The notes: generated by a model from the sequence alone, not told the origin. DNA of 64,000 nucleotides from an uncultured Ruminococcus sp. (GCA_946534605.1 CAMNCU010000003.1:954-64953); one strand, 5' to 3'. Shown: positions 14,370-63,602, numbered from the stretch's first letter. Made by a program: numbers and translations.

Positions 14370-15605
14370 ATGAAATTCAAAAAATTAATCAGTGTGCTTG
14401 CTTCGTGCGTTCTGCTTTCCGGGTGCGGTGCTGTCAGCGAAACGCCCGGTAATAATCTGACTGCTTCCGTGCAGAGCCAGCCCGTCAGCGTATCCGTTCC
14501 GGAAGGTGATTTTCAAACCTCACAGATGCAGTTTGCAGTCAAGCTTTTTCAGGAAAGCGTTTCCGAAACACCGGACGGCAATGTTCTTGTTTCTCCGCTG
14601 TCGGTAATGCTTGCACTCTCCATGACCGCCAACGGCGCGAACGGGCAGACGCTCTCCGAAATGGAACAGGTTCTCGGCAGTCCGCTTTCTGACCTGAATC
14701 AGAATCTTTACAGTTATACGCACAATCTGCCGTCCGGCGAAAATGCGAAGCTTTCTCTTGCAAATTCCATCTGGTTCAGAGACAGAGAAGATTTCAGCGT
14801 CAAACAGGAATTTTTACAGACTGATGCGGATTATTATCAGGCGGATGTATTTCAAGAGGCGTTCGACTCGAAAACATGCAATAAAATCAACAGCTGGGTG
14901 AAACAGAAAACAGACGGCATGATTCCGCAGATTATTGATACTATCGATACCGATACAATGATGTATTTAATCAATGCGCTGTCGTTCGATGCCGAATGGC
15001 TTCATATCTACGAAGATACGGATATTCGTGAAAATCAGAAATTCACGAATGCTGACGGCACAGAACAGACTGTCACGATGATGTCCTCAATAGAACCCAG
15101 ATATCTGAAATCCGAACATGCTAAAGGCTTTATTAAGCCATATAAAGATGGCTATAGTTTCGCGGCGATTCTGCCGGAAGAAAATCTTTCCGTAGATGAT
15201 TATATCGCTTCCCTGAATCCGGAATTGCTTTCTGATATGCTGAACAATGCGCAGAATACCGCTGTCTTTGCCCAGATGCCGAAATTCAAGTCAGAATATG
15301 ATACTTCTCTTGTGAATGCCCTGAAAGCTATGGGAATGCCGACAGCATTTTCCGGTACTGCCGATTTTTCCGGCATAAGTGATACATCTCTGTATATCAG
15401 TGATGTGCTTCACAAGACGTTTATCGAAGTCGACGAGCGCGGAACAAAAGCCGGAGCTGTGACCGCAGTCGCAGTAGCGGAAGGTGCAGGACTCGCATCA
15501 GATGAAAAAACAATTATTCTTGACAGACCATTTGTTTATATGATTATTGATGATGAAAATCATCTGCCTGTATTTATCGGCACAGTCCGGGAAATGCAGA
15601 ATTAA
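14370..15605 (+). CDS. Serpin (serine protease inhibitor), lipoprotein
   Basis: Lipobox LLSGC. Serpin body ending in hinge and reactive-centre loop DERGTKAGAVTAVAVAEGAGLASDEKTIILDRPFVYMI. Confidence 0.85.
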   Translation: MKFKKLISVLASCVLLSGCGAVSETPGNNLTASVQSQPVSVSVPEGDFQTSQMQFAVKLFQESVSETPDGNVLVSPLSVMLALSMTANGANGQTLSEMEQVLGSPLSDLNQNLYSYTHNLPSGENAKLSLANSIWFRDREDFSVKQEFLQTDADYYQADVFQEAFDSKTCNKINSWVKQKTDGMIPQIIDTIDTDTMMYLINALSFDAEWLHIYEDTDIRENQKFTNADGTEQTVTMMSSIEPRYLKSEHAKGFIKPYKDGYSFAAILPEENLSVDDYIASLNPELLSDMLNNAQNTAVFAQMPKFKSEYDTSLVNALKAMGMPTAFSGTADFSGISDTSLYISDVLHKTFIEVDERGTKAGAVTAVAVAEGAGLASDEKTIILDRPFVYMIIDDENHLPVFIGTVREMQN

Positions 15606-15618
15606 GGAGGAATGTTAC

Positions 15619-17001
15619 ATGAAATCGAAAAAATTATTATCAGCCGTTCTGTTGTGCAGTCTTCTGCTGACCGGGTGCGGAGGACAGACCGAATCCCTCA
15701 CACCGCCGGAATCCGCTGTGATTCCTGAAACAGAAACAACGACAGAAACGGAAGTCATCACAGAATCGGAAACAGAAACCCAAACAGAAATTATTACAGA
15801 ACCCGAAACAGAACCGCTTACAGAAACCGAATCCGAAACAGAAACAAACAGTTCTGTTTCCACATGGGAGGATATGACAATGAATGACGCATTCAAAACG
15901 AATCAGATGAATTTAGCAGTTTCACTGCTTCAGAAAGAAACCGAACGGCATTCTAACCAGAATGTTCTGATTTCGCCGTTTTCGATTTCGACGGCGTTAG
16001 CCCTGACCGCTGACGGTTCAGCCAGTGAAACCCGGAAACAGATGGAAGATTTCTTCGGTCAGGATATCGAAACTTTCGGCACGGATTTGAAAAACTATAC
16101 CGAAAATCTGCCTTCTACAGAAAACAGCAAGTGCGTTTCTGCAAATTCGGTCTGGATAAAACAGACAGATGAAATCACCGTAAAAGAAGATTTTCTCAAA
16201 ACTGCCGATGAACTCTATCATGCCGGCGTGTTTGAAGAACCCTTCGATTCCAGCACAAAAGATAAAATTAACGGCTGGGTCAGCGAACATACAGATAATA
16301 TGATTGATAAAATTATTGATGATATCAGCGAAGATGCTGTCATGTATCTTATCAACGCGCTGACATTCGACGCGCAGTGGGATGACCAGTATGAAGATTA
16401 TCAGATTGAAGACGGTACTTTCACGGCTCTGAACGGTACGGAACGAACCGTTTCCATGATGCAGAGTACAGAAGGCAGCTACTATGAAGATGAACATGCT
16501 GTCGGATTCAGCAAGCCTTACCGTTACGGCTATAGTTTTGTTGCACTGCTTCCGGATGAAGATACGGATATTCTGGATTATGTCAGCACGCTCGACGGCG
16601 AAAGAATTCATAATCTTCTGGAGAATCCGCAGAGATATGATGTCAATGCCAAACTTCCGGCATTCGAGACAGACTACAGCACAAGCCTGAAAGATTCTCT
16701 GGAATCCTCCATGCCAGATGCGTTCTCTCAGGAAAGTGCCGATTTTTCCAGGATGGCGGATGTCAATAATCCTGAAAAGAATCTCTATATCAATGATGTG
16801 ATTCATAAAACTTATATCTCCGTCGATAAGAACGGCACGAAAGCCGCCGCTGTGACGGCTGTCGAAATGTACGCTACTGCATCTGCCAGAGAAGAAAGAG
16901 AAATCAAAGAAGTCATTCTCGACCGCCCCTTTGTCTACCTGATTGTTGATAATGCAAATATGCTCCCGTTATTTATGGGAATTGTCACAGATATTGCTTG
17001 A
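15619..17001 (+). CDS. Serpin, lipoprotein with a Thr/Glu-rich linker
   Basis: ATG 15619 after AAGGAGG. Lipobox LLLTGC, a (T/E)-rich linker of about 45 aa, then a serpin body with hinge NGTKAAAVTAVEMYATASAREEREIKEVILDRPF. Confidence 0.85.
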   Translation: MKSKKLLSAVLLCSLLLTGCGGQTESLTPPESAVIPETETTTETEVITESETETQTEIITEPETEPLTETESETETNSSVSTWEDMTMNDAFKTNQMNLAVSLLQKETERHSNQNVLISPFSISTALALTADGSASETRKQMEDFFGQDIETFGTDLKNYTENLPSTENSKCVSANSVWIKQTDEITVKEDFLKTADELYHAGVFEEPFDSSTKDKINGWVSEHTDNMIDKIIDDISEDAVMYLINALTFDAQWDDQYEDYQIEDGTFTALNGTERTVSMMQSTEGSYYEDEHAVGFSKPYRYGYSFVALLPDEDTDILDYVSTLDGERIHNLLENPQRYDVNAKLPAFETDYSTSLKDSLESSMPDAFSQESADFSRMADVNNPEKNLYINDVIHKTYISVDKNGTKAAAVTAVEMYATASAREEREIKEVILDRPFVYLIVDNANMLPLFMGIVTDIA

Positions 17002-57268: not shown

Positions 57269-58297
57269 TTATTCTGTCAGACCGACAATCATTTTCATAA
57301 TCGTCAGAGAATCGGAAGCGTCGATTTTCTCGTCCTTGTTGGCATCCGCGGCGAGTTCCTGCGCAGAATTCAGCTTTTCTTTGCCGAGAATTGCTTTATT
57401 GAGAATAATCACATCCAGAATATTCAGTTTGTCGTCCAGATTCAAATCCCCGGCTTTGATTTCTACTGCTGCATCTGTAGGGAAAATTTCTTCCGGGTCA
57501 GGCTTTTTCACTATACGGAATTCAAAATCACATAATTCCAAAAAGCCCTGTTCCTGACAGTAATTTTTTATCCGGTCAATGTCTTCCTTTGTGTATGCTG
57601 TCACCGCTATGCTCATGCCTGTAACATTGAAAATACTCCCGTAATGATTGCGGGATACAAAACCCTCATATCCGTTGCTTTCCATGAATGCCTGAATCTG
57701 TTTTGCAGCCTCTGTTATGGACATTACCAGATTCTCATCCATCTGATAGACAAGATGATAGTCAATCGTATATTTTTCCGAAAAGCCCTGTTCTTCGCAG
57801 TAAGCTTCCATCAATTCTTTTATTTTTGTGCTTGCACACATGACAGTGAGAGAATTGTGGAAATAATCATAGAAAACGCGGTATGCATAGTCAGCCCCTG
57901 CCAGTTCACCGAGATATTTTTCCGTCTGCAATGCGGCGGAAATCAGCGCGTTCTTTTCTTCTTCGGGAAGTTCCGGAAGAATTTCACCGTCAAATTTCAG
58001 GAAAAACTGATATGTCACACCGTCTGTCAGATTTTCCTGCTGACAATATTCCATCATGTTGCTTTTTACATTTTCATAATGCGCCTGACTTCCGGTGTTT
58101 ACTACAACAGAAATGAGGTTCTGTTCTTCGTCACAGGTGATAGTATACAGCTGTACTGACGGCGGAATTGCATCTGCAATCTGATTGCAGATACTTTGTA
58201 CTGAAATTTCCGTTTCTCCGGCGAAAACGGGAATACTGATTTCGGACTGTATACAGCACAGGAACGCCAGCACAGCGGCTAAGAGTTTCTTTTTCAT
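57269..58297 (-). CDS. Secreted protein: three 'YCxEQGF' repeat modules plus a C-terminal dockerin
   Basis: ATG 58297 after GAGGTG, then a signal peptide. Modules end in MEYCQQENL, MEAYCEEQGF and KNYCQEQGF. Dockerin KAGDLNLDDKLNILDVIILNKAILGKEKLNSAQELAADANKDEKIDASDSLTIMKMIVGL (57272..57457). Confidence 0.65.
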   Translation of the reverse strand: MKKKLLAAVLAFLCCIQSEISIPVFAGETEISVQSICNQIADAIPPSVQLYTITCDEEQNLISVVVNTGSQAHYENVKSNMMEYCQQENLTDGVTYQFFLKFDGEILPELPEEEKNALISAALQTEKYLGELAGADYAYRVFYDYFHNSLTVMCASTKIKELMEAYCEEQGFSEKYTIDYHLVYQMDENLVMSITEAAKQIQAFMESNGYEGFVSRNHYGSIFNVTGMSIAVTAYTKEDIDRIKNYCQEQGFLELCDFEFRIVKKPDPEEIFPTDAAVEIKAGDLNLDDKLNILDVIILNKAILGKEKLNSAQELAADANKDEKIDASDSLTIMKMIVGLTE

Positions 58298-58330
58298 AAA
58301 AAGCACCTCGTTTCTGAAAATTTAAATAAT

Positions 58331-60418
58331 TTATGATTCAATGGACTTCACCGCGCCCATAAATACGGGCAGATGATTTTCCATATCGACAATCATATAG
58401 ACGAACGGTCTGTCGAGCGTGACAGTTTTATAGTCCATTACAGCGGTTACGCCGTCCATCTGGACGACTGTCACAGCGGCGGCACGAGTGCCTTCTTCGG
58501 TCACGTCGATATGCGTCTTATGCAGAACTTCCCCGATATGCAGAATATCCCATTCTGCCTGCATATCCGCCATTCTGGTGAAGTCGGCGTTCAGGGGGTC
58601 GAACGCGGTCGGCATACCCATTTCACAGAGGGGCTTTTTCAGCGTGATATCATAATCATAGCTGAACTTCGGCATTGATGTGTAAGTCTTGACAGAAACC
58701 GGGCTGGAAAGCGTATTCTGTAATGATTCGGCAGTCATGCCGGAAATATATTCATCTACAGAAATTCCCTCGTTCGGAAGCATTGCCGCGAAGGCGTATC
58801 TTCCGCCGTCATAATATTTATAGAATCCGGTCGCGGAATCGTCTTCCAGATAGGCATATTCTTCGGAATGCATCATGCTGACGGTTTCGGCAGAGCCGTC
58901 CCAGGCGGTAAAATCTCCGTCATGAACCTGATATTCCGAATCATAGGGATTCTGCCATTTTGCGTCGAAAGTGACGGCGTTAATCAGATACATCAGAGTA
59001 TCGGGGTCAATGGGCTGTTCAGGGTTGAGGACTTCCGGAATCATCCGGTCGGTCTTGTTGCTGACCCAGTTGTTAATATCTGTAACGGTAGAATCATCAA
59101 ACGGGGCTTTATAGGCATCGGCAGAGTAATAATCCGCATTGACTTTCAGGAAGTCCGGCAGAACCTGAAATCTTTCTTCAAAGTCGCGATACCAGATAGA
59201 ATTTGCCGTTGACAGCCGGCATTTGGCAGTATCCGGCTGACTGATTCGCTGTGTATACAGATACTGATTCAAATCATTGAGAGGCAGTCCGCCGAGAGTC
59301 TGTTCCATCTCGGAGAGCGTCTGCCCGTCCGCGCCGTTGGCAGTCATCGCGAGAGCCTGCATCACGGAATAAGGCGAAACAAGAACATTCTGTTCCGGAG
59401 TTTCCTGTTCGGCTTTCTGGAACAGATTCAGATAAAAGCCTGTCTGCGCCTGAATAAACGCATCATCAGCGGCTTTGCCCTCAACAGCATCTGACTGTAC
59501 AGACTTGCTTAAATTCACAGAAGCCGGGCTGAGAGCCTTGTCACTGGGTTTTTCGAGCAGTCCGACGATAGCTTTCATAATCGCCAGAGAATCGGAAGCG
59601 TCTATTTTCTCGTCCTTGTTGGCATCGGCGGCGAGTTCCTGAACGGAGTTCAGCTTTTCTTTGCCGAGAATCGCTTTATTGAGAATGATAACATCTAAAA
59701 TATTCAGTTTATCGTCAAGATTCAGGTCTCCGGCTTTGACAGTTACGTCCATACCTTCTACACCGGTTTCTGTAGGGTCTGGTTCTTCATCATCAGATGT
59801 CCATGCAATAAAAATAAAAGCATACTTTTCTGTAAAGCCCTGTTCCTGACAGAACGCCTTTACGGTTTCAAGCTGAGAATCTGCTTTTTCCCTGACTGCC
59901 TGATTTTCTTCTGAACTTGAGAACATTTCCGTTTCTGAAAGATATGCTGTCACCTGAATCAAACCATTGTTAGGAGCGGCAGTGATATAGTTCAGCTGAT
60001 TTTCATCAGCGAACTGATTGATTTGTTCAGCAATCTTCTGCTGACCGTTTTCCTCGGCGGTAAAGCGAATATCGAAATCATTCAGAAAGCCCTGTTCTTC
60101 GCAGTAAGCTTTGACGGTATCGAGATTCGCGCAAATCTTTTCCCAGTCGTAGTTGCTGTCATGGGAGGGAATTTCTATCGTCACGAAGATAACGGGTTCA
60201 GGTGTATAATCCACATTGCAGTGGATATATACAAAATTCTTTTTAAAGATAAAATTACTGATTTGATTACTCACATCACTGGAAGTCATTCTCCGGGTTT
60301 CTTCCTGCGTTTCTTCTTCGGTCGGCGCGAGGGTCACGGCATTTGCATTCAGGCTGATTCCGGTCTGGAAGCAGAGCAGTAAAGCGGCAATTCCTGCAAA
60401 AATTCTTGTTTTTTTCAT
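58331..60418 (-). CDS. Secreted protein: two 'YCxEQGF' modules, dockerin, serpin
   Basis: ATG 60418 after GAGGTG. Modules with VKAYCEEQGF and VKAFCQEQGF, dockerin (59558..59737), then a full serpin with hinge/RCL EEGTRAAAVTVVQMDGVTAVMDYKTVTLDRPF. Confidence 0.8.
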   Translation of the reverse strand: MKKTRIFAGIAALLLCFQTGISLNANAVTLAPTEEETQEETRRMTSSDVSNQISNFIFKKNFVYIHCNVDYTPEPVIFVTIEIPSHDSNYDWEKICANLDTVKAYCEEQGFLNDFDIRFTAEENGQQKIAEQINQFADENQLNYITAAPNNGLIQVTAYLSETEMFSSSEENQAVREKADSQLETVKAFCQEQGFTEKYAFIFIAWTSDDEEPDPTETGVEGMDVTVKAGDLNLDDKLNILDVIILNKAILGKEKLNSVQELAADANKDEKIDASDSLAIMKAIVGLLEKPSDKALSPASVNLSKSVQSDAVEGKAADDAFIQAQTGFYLNLFQKAEQETPEQNVLVSPYSVMQALAMTANGADGQTLSEMEQTLGGLPLNDLNQYLYTQRISQPDTAKCRLSTANSIWYRDFEERFQVLPDFLKVNADYYSADAYKAPFDDSTVTDINNWVSNKTDRMIPEVLNPEQPIDPDTLMYLINAVTFDAKWQNPYDSEYQVHDGDFTAWDGSAETVSMMHSEEYAYLEDDSATGFYKYYDGGRYAFAAMLPNEGISVDEYISGMTAESLQNTLSSPVSVKTYTSMPKFSYDYDITLKKPLCEMGMPTAFDPLNADFTRMADMQAEWDILHIGEVLHKTHIDVTEEGTRAAAVTVVQMDGVTAVMDYKTVTLDRPFVYMIVDMENHLPVFMGAVKSIES

Positions 60419-60452
60419 AATCAAGCACCTCATTTCTGAAAATTTAAATAAT

Positions 60453-61985
60453 TTATGATTCAATAGATTTCACCGCGCCCATGAATACAGGCAGATGATT
60501 TTCCATATCAACAATCATATAGACGAACGGTCTGTCGAGCGTGACGGTTTTATGTTCTTCAACGGCATCATTTCCGGCTAACATGACGGCTGTCACAGCG
60601 GCGGCGCGAGTGCCTTCTTCGGTCACGTCGATATGGGTCTTATGCAGAACCTGCGCGATATGCAGAACATCGCTAGGGTCTTTCATCTCCGCCATTCTGG
60701 TGAAATCGGCATTCCATTCGTCGAACGCGGTCGGCATACCCATTTCACAGAGGGGCTTTTTCAGCGTGATATCATAATCATAGCTGAACTTCGGCATTGA
60801 TGTGTAAGTCTTGACAGAAACCGGATGGGAAAGCGTATTCTGTAATGATTCGGCAGTCATACCGGAAATATAGTCATCTACGGAAATTCCCTCGTTCGGG
60901 AGCAGAGCCGCGAATGCGTATCTTCCGCCGTCATAATATTTATAGAATCCGGTCGCGGAAGCATCTTCCAGATAGTAATATTCTTCAGAGTTCATCATGC
61001 TGACTTTCTGCGCCGAGCCGTCCCAGGCGGTGAAATCGCCGTCATGAACCTGATATTCGGAATCATAGGGAGACATCCACTTGGCATCGAATGTGACGGC
61101 GTTGATTAAGAACATCAGCATATTAGGGGCAATCGGCTGTTCAGGGTCGAGAACGCCCGGAATCATTCTGTCGGTCTTATTGCTGACCCAGTTGTTGACA
61201 TCTGTAATGGTAGAATCATCAAACGGGGCTTTGAACGCATCGGCGGAATAATAATCCGCGTTGACTTTCAGGAAGTCCGGCAGAACCTGAAATCTTTCTT
61301 CAAAATCTCTGTACCAGATGGAATTTGCCGTTGACAGCCGGCATTTCTCTGTATTCGGCTGAGAGGTTCTTTGTGTATACAGATACTGATTCAAATCATC
61401 CAGAGGAAGTCCGCCGAGGGTCTGTTCCATCTCGGAGAGGGTCTGACCGTCCGCACCGTTGGCAGTCATGGCGAGAGCCTGCATCACCGAATAAGGCGAA
61501 ACCAGAACATTCTGTTCCGGGGTCTGTGCTTCGGCTTTCTGGAACAGATTCAGGTAAAAGCCCGTCTGTGCCTGAATAAACGCATCATCGGCGGCTTTGC
61601 CCTCGACAGCATCAGATTTGACGGCTTTACTCAAATTCGTGGAAGCCGGGCTGAGAGCCTTGTCACTGGGCTTTTCGAGCAGACCGACGATAGCTTTCAT
61701 AATCGCCAGAGAATCGGAAGCGTCGATTTTCTCGTCCTTGTTGGCATCGGCGGCGAGTTCCTGCACGGAAGTCAGCTTTTCTTTGCCGAGAATCGCTTTA
61801 TTGAGAATGATAACATCTAAAATATTCAGTTTATCGTCAAGATTCAGGTCTCCGGCTTTGACAACGACTTCAGCATTATCGCCAATTTCCGTAGGTTCTT
61901 CGGCGGCATTCGCGGTCAGGCTGATTCCGGTCTGGAAGCAGAGCAGTAAAGCGGCAATTCCTGCAAAAATTCTTGTTTTTTTCAT
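60453..61985 (-). CDS. Secreted dockerin-serpin
   Basis: ATG 61985 after AAGGAG, then a signal peptide, dockerin (61680..61859) and a serpin with hinge/RCL EEGTRAAAVTAVMLAGNDAVEEHKTVTLDRPF. Confidence 0.8.
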   Translation of the reverse strand: MKKTRIFAGIAALLLCFQTGISLTANAAEEPTEIGDNAEVVVKAGDLNLDDKLNILDVIILNKAILGKEKLTSVQELAADANKDEKIDASDSLAIMKAIVGLLEKPSDKALSPASTNLSKAVKSDAVEGKAADDAFIQAQTGFYLNLFQKAEAQTPEQNVLVSPYSVMQALAMTANGADGQTLSEMEQTLGGLPLDDLNQYLYTQRTSQPNTEKCRLSTANSIWYRDFEERFQVLPDFLKVNADYYSADAFKAPFDDSTITDVNNWVSNKTDRMIPGVLDPEQPIAPNMLMFLINAVTFDAKWMSPYDSEYQVHDGDFTAWDGSAQKVSMMNSEEYYYLEDASATGFYKYYDGGRYAFAALLPNEGISVDDYISGMTAESLQNTLSHPVSVKTYTSMPKFSYDYDITLKKPLCEMGMPTAFDEWNADFTRMAEMKDPSDVLHIAQVLHKTHIDVTEEGTRAAAVTAVMLAGNDAVEEHKTVTLDRPFVYMIVDMENHLPVFMGAVKSIES

Positions 61986-62015: not shown

Positions 62016-62990
62016 TTATTGATTTTGATTTTCGGAATTGAAAAACAGATTCCGGAATTCTTCTTCGCTGATGTCAGCACTGCGGAACAGATAGTAATTT
62101 TCTTCGCCCTCGAACTGTACCGCGGCGGCTGTTCCGTAAGGCATTCCCTCGATAAGATAGGCATTGCCGATATTTTCCACTAATTTCTGTGAGCCGTCCG
62201 GATAGCGGACAGTGACATCAATGGTATCGAACCATTCGCCGACGAGCTCCGGGCTGACAGTGTTTCCGGTCAGGCAGAAGACAGCATCTTCTCCGGAATC
62301 GTTGCCCAAGCTGTTTTTCGCCAGATGAAGCGTAATTCTCGGAAAGGCGAACGCGATAGACGCCCCCTGTTCGGTGAGTTCGTCCGGAACGGTATCCGGA
62401 ATTTCTTCTGTCTGTCCTGCGATGATGGGAAGCGTTTCCGATTCAGCAGGAATCGTCGTTGTTTCGGGGATGGTTTCCGTCGGCGGAACGGTTTCCGGAA
62501 TGATTTCCGGCTGTTCGGTAATGGGAACAGCTTCCGGAACTTCCACAAGTTCAGGGGCTTCGGTGACAGGTTCAGGCGCGTTCTGAATCGGCTGAACGGT
62601 CTGTGTTGTTGTCTGAATCATCACAGAAGTTTGGATTTCTGCGGAAGTCTGTATAGCTGTTGTACTGATTTCGGGAAGCGTCTCGGACGGGCTTTCCGGA
62701 ACGGTTTCGGGAATTCTTGTTTCTGTGATGATAGCCGGAACGGATTCCGGAACTGTTGTTGCAGATGTTGTTTCTGATTCTGTTTGAACGGCAGTTTCTT
62801 CCGGAACGTTCGGGACTGCCGGAAAGTTCTGCCGGTTCTGCCACGGATGCAGACCCATCACCACCACGAAGCCGAAACTTGCCATCACGGGCGCATACCG
62901 GAAAAACAGAACCTTCTGCCGTTGTTTCTTTCTGAGATAGTCATCACGCGCGGAAAAGACCGCCTGCGCCATCTGCTGATATGTTTTCAT
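62016..62990 (-). CDS. Putative anti-sigma factor (single-pass membrane protein with an extracytoplasmic domain)
   Basis: ATG 62990 overlaps the sigma stop (ATGA). Short cytoplasmic N-terminus, TM segment (YAPVMASFGFVVVMGL), a Thr/Pro/Glu-rich linker and a globular C-terminal domain. Confidence 0.55.
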   Translation of the reverse strand: MKTYQQMAQAVFSARDDYLRKKQRQKVLFFRYAPVMASFGFVVVMGLHPWQNRQNFPAVPNVPEETAVQTESETTSATTVPESVPAIITETRIPETVPESPSETLPEISTTAIQTSAEIQTSVMIQTTTQTVQPIQNAPEPVTEAPELVEVPEAVPITEQPEIIPETVPPTETIPETTTIPAESETLPIIAGQTEEIPDTVPDELTEQGASIAFAFPRITLHLAKNSLGNDSGEDAVFCLTGNTVSPELVGEWFDTIDVTVRYPDGSQKLVENIGNAYLIEGMPYGTAAAVQFEGEENYYLFRSADISEEEFRNLFFNSENQNQ

Positions 62991-63526
62991 AAGCAACCGC
63001 CTTCCTTTTCGAGTTGAAGTTTCAGTGATTTTCTGGCATTGTACAGAAGATTTTCGACCTGTTTTCTGGTTTTCCGCATAATCCGGGCGATTTCGTCATT
63101 GCTGAACTGCTCGAAATAAGAAAGATAAATCGCCTGCTGATAGTCCGGTTTCAGATTCCGGATAGCCTGATGCACGATAATTTTCTGTTCTTCCTGAATG
63201 TAGTCCTGTTCGATATCCTGTAAATCGGCGAATTCGGCGGCATCGTCGAGCGGAACGGACGGGCGGTGTTTCCGTAGCATATCGCGCGTGACGTTTCTGC
63301 CGATAGCGTAAAGCCATGTTTTAAAAGAAGAATTTCCGCGGAACTTAGGCTTTTTAATCGCAAGTCTGATGAAAGTTTCCTGCACACAGTCTTCTGCATC
63401 ACTGATATTGTTGGTAAAACTGACGAGATACAACAGCAGACCGTCTTTATAGTCGCGGATTAATTCCGTCATGCCGCTGTCATCTCCCTCGATATAACGG
63501 CGGTAGCTACTTGCACCGTTATCCAT
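62987..63526 (-). CDS. ECF-type sigma-70 family RNA polymerase sigma factor
   Basis: Region 2 (DAEDCVQETFIRL...FKTWLYAIGRN) and region 4 (LSYFEQFSNDEIARIMRKTRKQVENLLYNARKSL). The start could be ATG 63526 or GTG 63556. Confidence 0.8.
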   Translation of the reverse strand: MDNGASSYRRYIEGDDSGMTELIRDYKDGLLLYLVSFTNNISDAEDCVQETFIRLAIKKPKFRGNSSFKTWLYAIGRNVTRDMLRKHRPSVPLDDAAEFADLQDIEQDYIQEEQKIIVHQAIRNLKPDYQQAIYLSYFEQFSNDEIARIMRKTRKQVENLLYNARKSLKLQLEKEGGCL

Positions 63527-63602
63527 GAATTGGGGAACTCCTTTCTGCGCTTTCACTTATTAGACGAGAGGAGCGAAGCAAAACACTAAGTGAATTTTAA
63601 AA

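Follow-up and report, generated by a model that had tools for sequence, protein, structure and literature searches.

Conserved scaffolds and divergent reactive-centre loops in a tandem pair of dockerin-serpins from an uncultured Ruminococcus

Described serpin systems and the Ruminococcus locus

Cellulosomal serpins have been reported from Clostridium thermocellum, as PinA and its relatives (Kang et al. 2006; Ó Cuív et al. 2013, both as cited in PMC5301203), and from Ruminococcus flavefaciens FD-1, in which two adjacent genes, ORF01368 and ORF01369, have the organisation SIGN-Doc-SERPIN (PMC2930009) and the dockerin (group 6b) of a Doc-Serpin bound a cohesin (PMC5301203). This report concerns two tandem dockerin-serpin genes, designated A and B, in a 64,000-nucleotide stretch of DNA from an uncultured Ruminococcus sp. 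(GCA_946534605.1, CAMNCU010000003.1:954-64953); the whole stretch is referred to as the window, and positions are counted from its first letter. Serpin B (60453..61985, minus strand; 510 aa from the ATG at 61985) is composed of a signal peptide, a type I dockerin and a serpin domain, with Pfam matches to Dockerin_1 and Serpin, and is identical to the 510-aa database protein P0001. Serpin A (58331..60418, minus strand; 695 aa from the ATG at 60418) carries a signal peptide, two modules of ~80 aa marked by the motif 'YCxEQGF', a type I dockerin and a serpin domain, an architecture that is also that of its ortholog A2 (P0002) in a sister species. The pair resembles the described dockerin-serpins in its signal peptides, in the position of the type I dockerin N-terminal to the serpin, in its tandem arrangement and in its host, a cellulosomal Ruminococcus with many dockerins, but it differs from them in the two extra modules of A and in lying behind a gene pair for an extracytoplasmic function (ECF) sigma factor and an anti-sigma-like protein. 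Loop divergence and concerted evolution of the known dockerin-serpin pairs are not analysed in PMC5301203 or PMC2930009. In the reading that we consider probable, though well short of certain, A and B are old paralogs whose scaffolds have been homogenised by gene conversion, the conversion tracts stopping at the reactive-centre loops.

Tandem serpins of mammals are known for accelerated evolution of the reactive centre (Hill & Hastie 1987) and for gene conversion combined with selection (Ohta 1994), as summarised in a review (PMC3966226), and recent cases include SERPINB3/B4 (PMC4136820) and woodrat SERPINA3 (PMC12646145). A and B share with these clusters the tandem paralogy, the conserved scaffold, the concentration of replacements in the loop, the conversion of flanks and the appeal to selection. 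Unlike them, the pair is bacterial, intron-less and probably co-transcribed, has no demonstrable excess of nonsynonymous over synonymous divergence (dN>dS), and has loops that appear older than the scaffold and preserved from conversion, with no sign that conversion generated the diversity. In Manduca serpin-1, mutually exclusive loop exons (Jiang et al. 1994, as cited in PMC3966226) likewise combine a conserved scaffold with alternative bait loops that widen the inhibitor repertoire, but this is achieved by alternative splicing of one gene, whereas A and B are separate genes whose scaffolds are kept alike by recombination.

The solved structure nearest to A and B is that of tengpin from Thermoanaerobacter tengcongensis (PDB 2PEE, 2PEF, 2VH4; E 5e-95 over the whole serpin domain), in which a short N-terminal tail holds the native state (PMC1905895), and the alignment with A and B takes in this tail (NLSK.. 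versus NLMD..). The siropins of [Eubacterium] siraeum are a clostridial gut pair with loops 48% identical, and they inhibit elastase-type proteases (PMC5127057). Neither tengpin nor the siropins carry a dockerin or have been reported as a converted tandem pair, and their loops are unrelated to those of A and B. No description of bacterial serpins with such a pattern of loop and scaffold conversion was found in the literature searched, which is not proof of novelty; A and B are a clean prokaryotic instance of a known serpin pattern, in which scaffold and loop contrast unusually sharply.

Distribution of the differences between A and B

The amino acid differences between A and B are clustered. 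From the dockerin on, BLASTP gives 426/482 identities (88%), in agreement with the initial annotation of the window, which had put the two proteins at roughly nine identical positions in ten; its term 'near-identical' is too strong, given a DNA identity of 87.7% and a synonymous divergence (dS) of ~0.39, the nonsynonymous divergence (dN) being 0.07 and their ratio (omega) 0.17-0.19. Residue differences number 48 over the 467 positions aligned from the dockerin onward. The variable part of the reactive-centre loop lies exactly where it had first been placed, at 58430..58468 in A (VVQMDGVTAVMDY) and 60552..60590 in B (AVMLAGNDAVEEH), both on the minus strand, and spans P7-P6' by canonical count. 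Nine of its 13 residues differ, so that the two loops, first described as almost completely different, do have a V, a G, an A and a V in common. Canonical spacing to the hinge, and nothing else, predicts a P1 of Val for A and of Asn for B. The second variable patch reported upstream of the loop is also present, with 10 of 23 residues differing: in A it occupies 58529..58597 (minus strand; residues 623-645, PLNADFTRMADMQAEWDILHIGE) and comprises the loop between helix I and strand 5 of sheet A (s5A) together with the start of s5A, and in B it occupies 60651..60719 (minus strand; residues 426-448 in the numbering of a 513-aa open reading frame, EWNADFTRMAEMKDPSDVLHIAQ).

Between patch and loop, the 20 residues of s5A and the hinge show no difference, nor do the C-terminal 32 residues, and all other aligned positions differ at 29/431 (6.7%). 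The hinge reads EEGTRAAAVT (P17-P8) in both proteins (58469..58498 in A, 60591..60620 in B, minus strand), and the small residues that allow loop insertion (P15 Gly, P14 Thr, P12-P10 Ala) are present in each. The identity of the hinge and of the last 32 residues, noted at the outset, holds for the protein and not for the DNA, which has 6 silent differences in the C-terminal 32 codons and only 2 in the 20-codon s5A/hinge block. Clustering in the loop is beyond chance (hypergeometric p = 3e-7), and a permutation scan is significant for any 13-residue window (p = 6e-5) and for a 56-residue span (p = 1e-5); an even spread of substitutions, which the initial annotation had named as the result that would speak against it, is thus not what the alignment contains. 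Its statement that the differences concentrate in the loop needs tempering all the same, as only 19 of the 48 lie in loop and patch together and 60% fall outside them. The proportion of nonsynonymous differences (pN) is 0.47 in the loop and 0.05 in the body.

Silent divergence between A and B is a mosaic. The proportion of synonymous differences (pS) ranges from 0.05 to 0.65 along the genes and is patchy (chi-square p = 0.007), whereas between A and A2 it is homogeneous (p = 0.57). In the dockerin, pS is 0.05-0.14 between A and B against 0.6-0.77 between A and A2, and in two mid-gene regions (aligned codons about 60-90 and 240-300) the A/B value rises to 0.52-0.65. The dockerins of A (59567..59734, minus strand) and B (61689..61856) are homogenised and resemble that of the downstream gene, with which they form a three-copy repeat, D1. 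Directly abutting the patch, a tract attributed to recent gene conversion in A (58598..58741, minus strand, residues ~575-622; partner in B 60720..60863) includes 46 consecutive codons free of silent differences (permutation p = 0.006), its pS of 0.06-0.14 contrasting with the 0.5-0.65 of the mid-gene. At the other end of the genes, a 131-nt repeat, D3 (58301..58431, minus strand), is 95% identical to 60423..60553 at a spacing of 2122 nt and takes in the last 32 codons together with the stop codon and the intergenic stretch that bears the ribosome-binding site (RBS), so that the duplicated unit extends past the coding sequence; the 30 nt past the two stop codons (58301-58330; 60423-60452) are almost identical, TAAattatttaaattttcagaaa[c/t]gaggtgct, and include the RBS of the next gene.

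Genealogy of loops and scaffolds

A and B lie in a slot between the sigma gene pair and the spoIIIA operon whose gene content is different in each of four genomes: B, A and X3-Doc in the window genome (W); X-Doc, Doc, A2 and C2 in the sister species (S); Doc, O3 and X-Doc in genome T; X-Doc, U_1 and U_2 in genome U. Single-copy genes in the flanks place W and S together in the species tree, ((W,S),T), at a pS of 0.39-0.52, and for A and A2, separated by this split, dS is ~1. The loop of A shares 10/13 residues with that of A2 (VVQMDGIEAVMEY), and at P7, P5, P3 and P4' the two genes have GTC/GTT, CAG, GAC and ATG in common. At these same positions the codons of B are those of the outgroup serpin O3, namely GCC (P7), ATG (P5), GCC (P3) and GAA (P4'), and the G-N of the B loop at P2-P1 is also present in P0004. 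Because the A loop is shared with the sister-species ortholog and the B loop has ancestral codons, a recent duplication followed by loop change does not account for the pair. On the simplest reading, W and S inherited the A-type loop as a derived trait in common, which makes the A/B split older than these species, and the loops are older than most of the sequence that surrounds them. Of the two histories offered by the initial annotation, duplication with diversification of the loop or loop swapping, the element of recombination is retained, as gene conversion of the flanks, and that of a recent duplicate with a fast-changed loop is not.

Several comparisons support a loop genealogy that differs from the scaffold genealogy. 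In the quartet formed by A, B, A2 (locus L035) and O3, informative sites group A with A2 at 9/12 positions in the loop and at 27/101 elsewhere (Fisher p = 0.0016). The approximately unbiased (AU) test rejects A+A2 for the dockerin and N-terminal half (p = 0.011), where A+B is supported at 99/97, and rejects A+B for the loop alone, marginally (p = 0.0495). Concerted evolution is found in three genomes: in trees of the N-terminal serpin segment, paralogs from the same genome group together (W_A+W_B 76/90, U_1+U_2 100/99, S_A2+S_C2 74/86), as they do for the dockerins and linker. Mid-gene trees cluster by paralog type, with B outside A+A2. The C-terminal tail after the loop has a low pS, 0.19-0.30, in all three within-genome cassette pairs (W, S and U), and in S and U this tail is homogenised and the loop window is not. 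The pairwise homoplasy index (PHI) indicates recombination among seven serpins (p < 0.0005) and among A, B, A2 and O3 (p = 0.0005) and finds none when one serpin per genome is taken (p = 0.50); recombination is detected only with same-genome paralogs in the comparison. By four independent lines, namely the silent mosaic, the segment trees, the quartet sites and PHI, the serpins are recombinant mosaics.

Fast evolution of the loop is part of the explanation, but a constantly high rate of change fails for this pair, since A and A2 differ at 3/13 loop positions with bodies 86% identical, and A and B at 9/13 with bodies 93% identical. A related proposal dispenses with recombination: the gene would simply have been duplicated once the species had separated, and the loop and patch of B would then have changed in a burst of positive selection. 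Along the greater part of the genes A and B are indeed mutual closest relatives, B accounts for most of the lineage-specific change in the loop window (odd one out at 14 sites, against 4 for A), and the reactive-centre loop is the most variable part of the domain in the family at large. Such a burst would, however, oblige B to revert or converge to outgroup states at 9 nucleotide sites, four loop codons becoming identical, in a loop that has no dN>dS, and it leaves both the heterogeneity of silent divergence and the PHI signal unexplained; we hold this history to be decidedly improbable.

Alternatively, B could be a recent copy of the dockerin-serpin part of A that acquired its loop and part of its patch in one step from an O/B-type serpin, with no long history of conversion, the donor being a since-lost paralog or DNA of a related strain. 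The ancestral O-type loop codons inside an A-like scaffold are what such a swap would leave, the cassette content differs from genome to genome, as expected if gain, loss and shuffling are frequent, and the duplicated unit takes in the intergenic RBS. Yet a mid-gene pS of 0.52-0.65 between A and B, as old as the species split, is unexpected for a recent copy, as is the position of B outside A+A2 in the mid-gene tree; clustering by genome extends to two other genomes, and the genome contains no donor or silent loop cassette. A one-step swap is therefore unlikely, if somewhat less so than a selective burst. When the genome was searched with a 230-nt probe of hinge, loop and tail, only A, B and a short match in the first lipoprotein serpin of the window were recovered, and variation programmed by cassettes or of the kind produced by diversity-generating retroelements was rejected, the genome being devoid of extra loop copies.

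It may also be asked whether loop and patch are simply unconstrained, their hypervariability being neutral and devoid of functional meaning, with one copy perhaps redundant or non-inhibitory. No 13-residue stretch of the domain varies more among 121 relatives than the loop (an entropy of 2.6-2.7 bits, the mean being 1.43), whose length varies too, the patch is among the most variable stretches, and the C-type loops of the orthologs C2 and U_2 are almost wholly different, all of which neutral drift would allow. However, the A loop has been kept at 10/13 positions across a species split with dS ~1, and B-type features (AV-M/E-L/M..G-N/E...E) persist in proteins that are only 70% identical. Hinges and reading frames are intact in both genes, with omega at ~0.17-0.19, and drift would not bring conversion tracts to a stop right at the edges of the loop in three genomes. 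This makes neutrality very unlikely. Every tandem serpin pair recovered from relatives is less alike in the loop (7-62% identity) than in the body (38-80%).

Conversion between old paralogs would reconcile these observations as follows. B would keep the more ancestral loop, and the A-type loop would predate the split of W and S. After that split, repeated conversion between the tandem copies would have overwritten most of the non-loop sequence, including dockerin and linker, the serpin's N-terminal half, the tract before the patch, the s5A/hinge block and the C-terminal tail, and the tracts would stop where they reach the reactive-centre loop and the patch before s5A. Since the flanks are converted and the loops are not, the scaffolds look young and alike and the bait loops old and different. 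Selection against conversions that erase one of two useful specificities is the most likely reason, and local heterology may also help to stop the tracts.

Several points weigh against conversion with spared loops. Eight of the nine loop sites that join A to A2 are nonsynonymous, so that functional convergence or reversion is possible. The AU test on patch and loop together is not significant (p = 0.076), the result on the loop alone is borderline, and the clades compared were chosen after the alignment was seen. PHI on the quartet A, B, A2 and C2 alone is not significant either (p = 0.18). The loop shows no dN>dS by pairwise Nei–Gojobori (NG86) estimates, its pN of 0.47 and pS of 0.68 coming from 13 codons only and being saturated. 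The close relatives come from four genomes only, and no B-type ortholog with its loop was recovered from another genome, because a 96%-identical fragment, P0005, stops before the loop. Finally, the cleavage sites measured in the related siropins are P3-P2 and P6-P5, several residues away from those predicted, and not the predicted P1 (PMC5127057).

With these reservations, conversion of scaffolds around spared loops would mean that the rule known from mammalian and insect serpins, one scaffold with several bait loops, extends to the operons of bacteria, where the scaffolds stay similar through recombination and the loops stay distinct through selection. For the microbiology of rumen and gut, a natural cellulosome-docked pair that differs almost only in loop and patch would be a ready-made loop swap for mapping the proteases that threaten the complex. 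For annotators, it is a warning that young-looking paralogs can conceal old, functionally distinct loops.

Presumed function, gene neighbourhood and relatives

Both proteins match PF00079, the serpin family (MEROPS I4), from position 2 to 367 of its 370 (E = 3e-83 in A, 1e-80 in B). Dockerin_1, the type I dockerin with two Ca-binding repeats, is matched over positions 1-56 of 57 in A, B and the downstream gene, and the N-termini of A and B (MKKTRIFAG..ANA) look like signal peptides, judged by sequence alone. The hinge G-T-x-A-A-A-V-T and the core residues are conserved across the 121 relatives, the hinge G, T and A being invariant or nearly so. From these features, A and B would be secreted inhibitory serpins tethered to the cellulosome of a gut or rumen bacterium through an internal type I dockerin, and their loops would give them different protease targets. 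By homology, each would be exported and docked onto a cohesin, offering its loop as bait; cleavage of the loop would be followed by its insertion into sheet A and by trapping of the protease. The same assembly, of 2.5 Mb and ~90% complete, encodes a cohesin/dockerin system, with ~93 matches to dockerins and 2 to cohesins above the cut-off.

An AlphaFold model of B (mean pLDDT, the predicted local distance difference test score, 87.5; predicted template modelling score, pTM, 0.89) has a pLDDT below 50 at the centre of the loop and is used for the order of secondary structure only, not for geometry. In this model the patch precedes a strand (339-348) that leads into the hinge, and the hinge itself takes the form of a strand, which may reflect a partly inserted state. 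In the classical serpin mechanism, the translocated protease ends at the pole opposite the native loop. Because s5A runs up into the hinge, the turn that forms the patch should itself sit at the pole opposite the native loop, and its location at the final pole of the protease would, from general serpin topology, make co-variation of patch and loop plausible.

As regards targets, protection of the cellulosome from foreign proteases has been proposed for other cellulosomal serpins (PMC5301203). In the 90%-complete assembly there is no Pfam S8 (subtilisin) match, on which ground subtilisins of the bacterium itself were set aside as targets, and trypsin/HtrA-like matches number only three; foreign proteases attacking the cellulosome are thus the likelier targets of A and B. 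One can also picture the region flanked by spoIIIA and the ECF sigma pair as a dedicated, fast-shuffling inhibitor-repertoire locus of cellulosomal ruminococci, in which the unusual P1 Asn predicted for B, which a 70%-identical relative has as well, would be directed at an Asn-specific protease. Gene conversion would then keep scaffolds, dockerins, signal peptides and YCxEQGF modules interchangeable, selection would hold the bait loops apart in an arms race with foreign proteases, and the target of B would be, for instance, a legumain-type plant or protozoal protease in ingested forage rather than a classical serine protease. This picture is speculative and we give it little probability. In many of the homologs P0018-P0101, notably LRR (leucine-rich repeat)-dockerin-serpins of ~740 aa, the loop has one or two Cys with prolines after them close to where the scissile bond is predicted (TD-ECCPM and ND-GC-PAPPEK are examples), which is unusual for serpins and may point to a particular class of protease.

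On the minus strand, five genes run head to tail, encoding the ECF-type sigma factor, the anti-sigma-like protein, serpin B, serpin A and a third dockerin protein, and the spoIIIA operon follows directly. The sigma factor (62987..63556, minus strand; Pfam Sigma70_r2/r4_2) stands directly upstream of the cassette, and the membrane-bound anti-sigma-like protein (62016..62996, minus strand), which adjoins serpin B upstream, has ~320-340 aa with a Pro/Glu/Thr-rich linker in the copies of the window and of relatives. This upstream pair is found in 4/4 genomes (window 62016-63556; L035:5557-7055; L036:4779-6345; L158:408-1968). Between the sigma pair and the serpins, no convincing terminator-like site was found on the minus strand, bar one weak match inside A, so that the serpins may be under the control of the sigma factor; A and B themselves are probably transcribed together. 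Each serpin starts at an ATG preceded by an RBS (AAGGAG for B), and the GTG and TTG codons that had been listed as starts of A and B are ruled out. The third cassette gene (57269..58297, minus strand) encodes a signal peptide, three 'YCxEQGF' modules and a C-terminal dockerin. The module has ~80 residues, ends in '..YC[EQ]EQGF..' and has no Pfam match; two copies occur in A (59780-60289), three in the downstream gene (57475-58200) and one to three in the neighbouring genes of relatives (L035:7070-7603, L036 and L158), always between signal peptide and dockerin.

With regard to relatives, scans of metagenome and genome contigs yielded none closer than 63%, and the close relatives come from a protein search and its contigs. 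A third paralog type, represented by C2 (L035:10130-11641) and U_2 (L158:4639-6939), is marked by a 4-residue insertion (KDHDM / DGHDA); the two are orthologous in their mid-region, yet their loops are IEREIPVCETPLPE versus AVEETLESEAEINE, which means that not all loop types are conserved between species. The fragment P0005 (L159:231-1358, on a 1.4-kb metagenome contig) is a B-type gene that matches B at 50/50 A/B-discriminating sites up to residue 199, after which A-type and B-type blocks alternate; with a coverage of 1.5x it may be an assembly chimera of paralogs, and it was not used as a sign of ongoing conversion at the strain level.

The assembly contains only four serpins, all of them inside the window. 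Besides A and B, these are two tandem lipoprotein serpins on the plus strand (14370..15605 and 15619..17001), which carry two further loops, as the initial annotation had it. With 48% identity in the body and 18% in the loop, they form an older pair without visible homogenisation. Their lipoboxes read LLSGC and LLTGC, and the second most likely starts at MKSKKLL (nt 15619) rather than at the listed TTG (15547).

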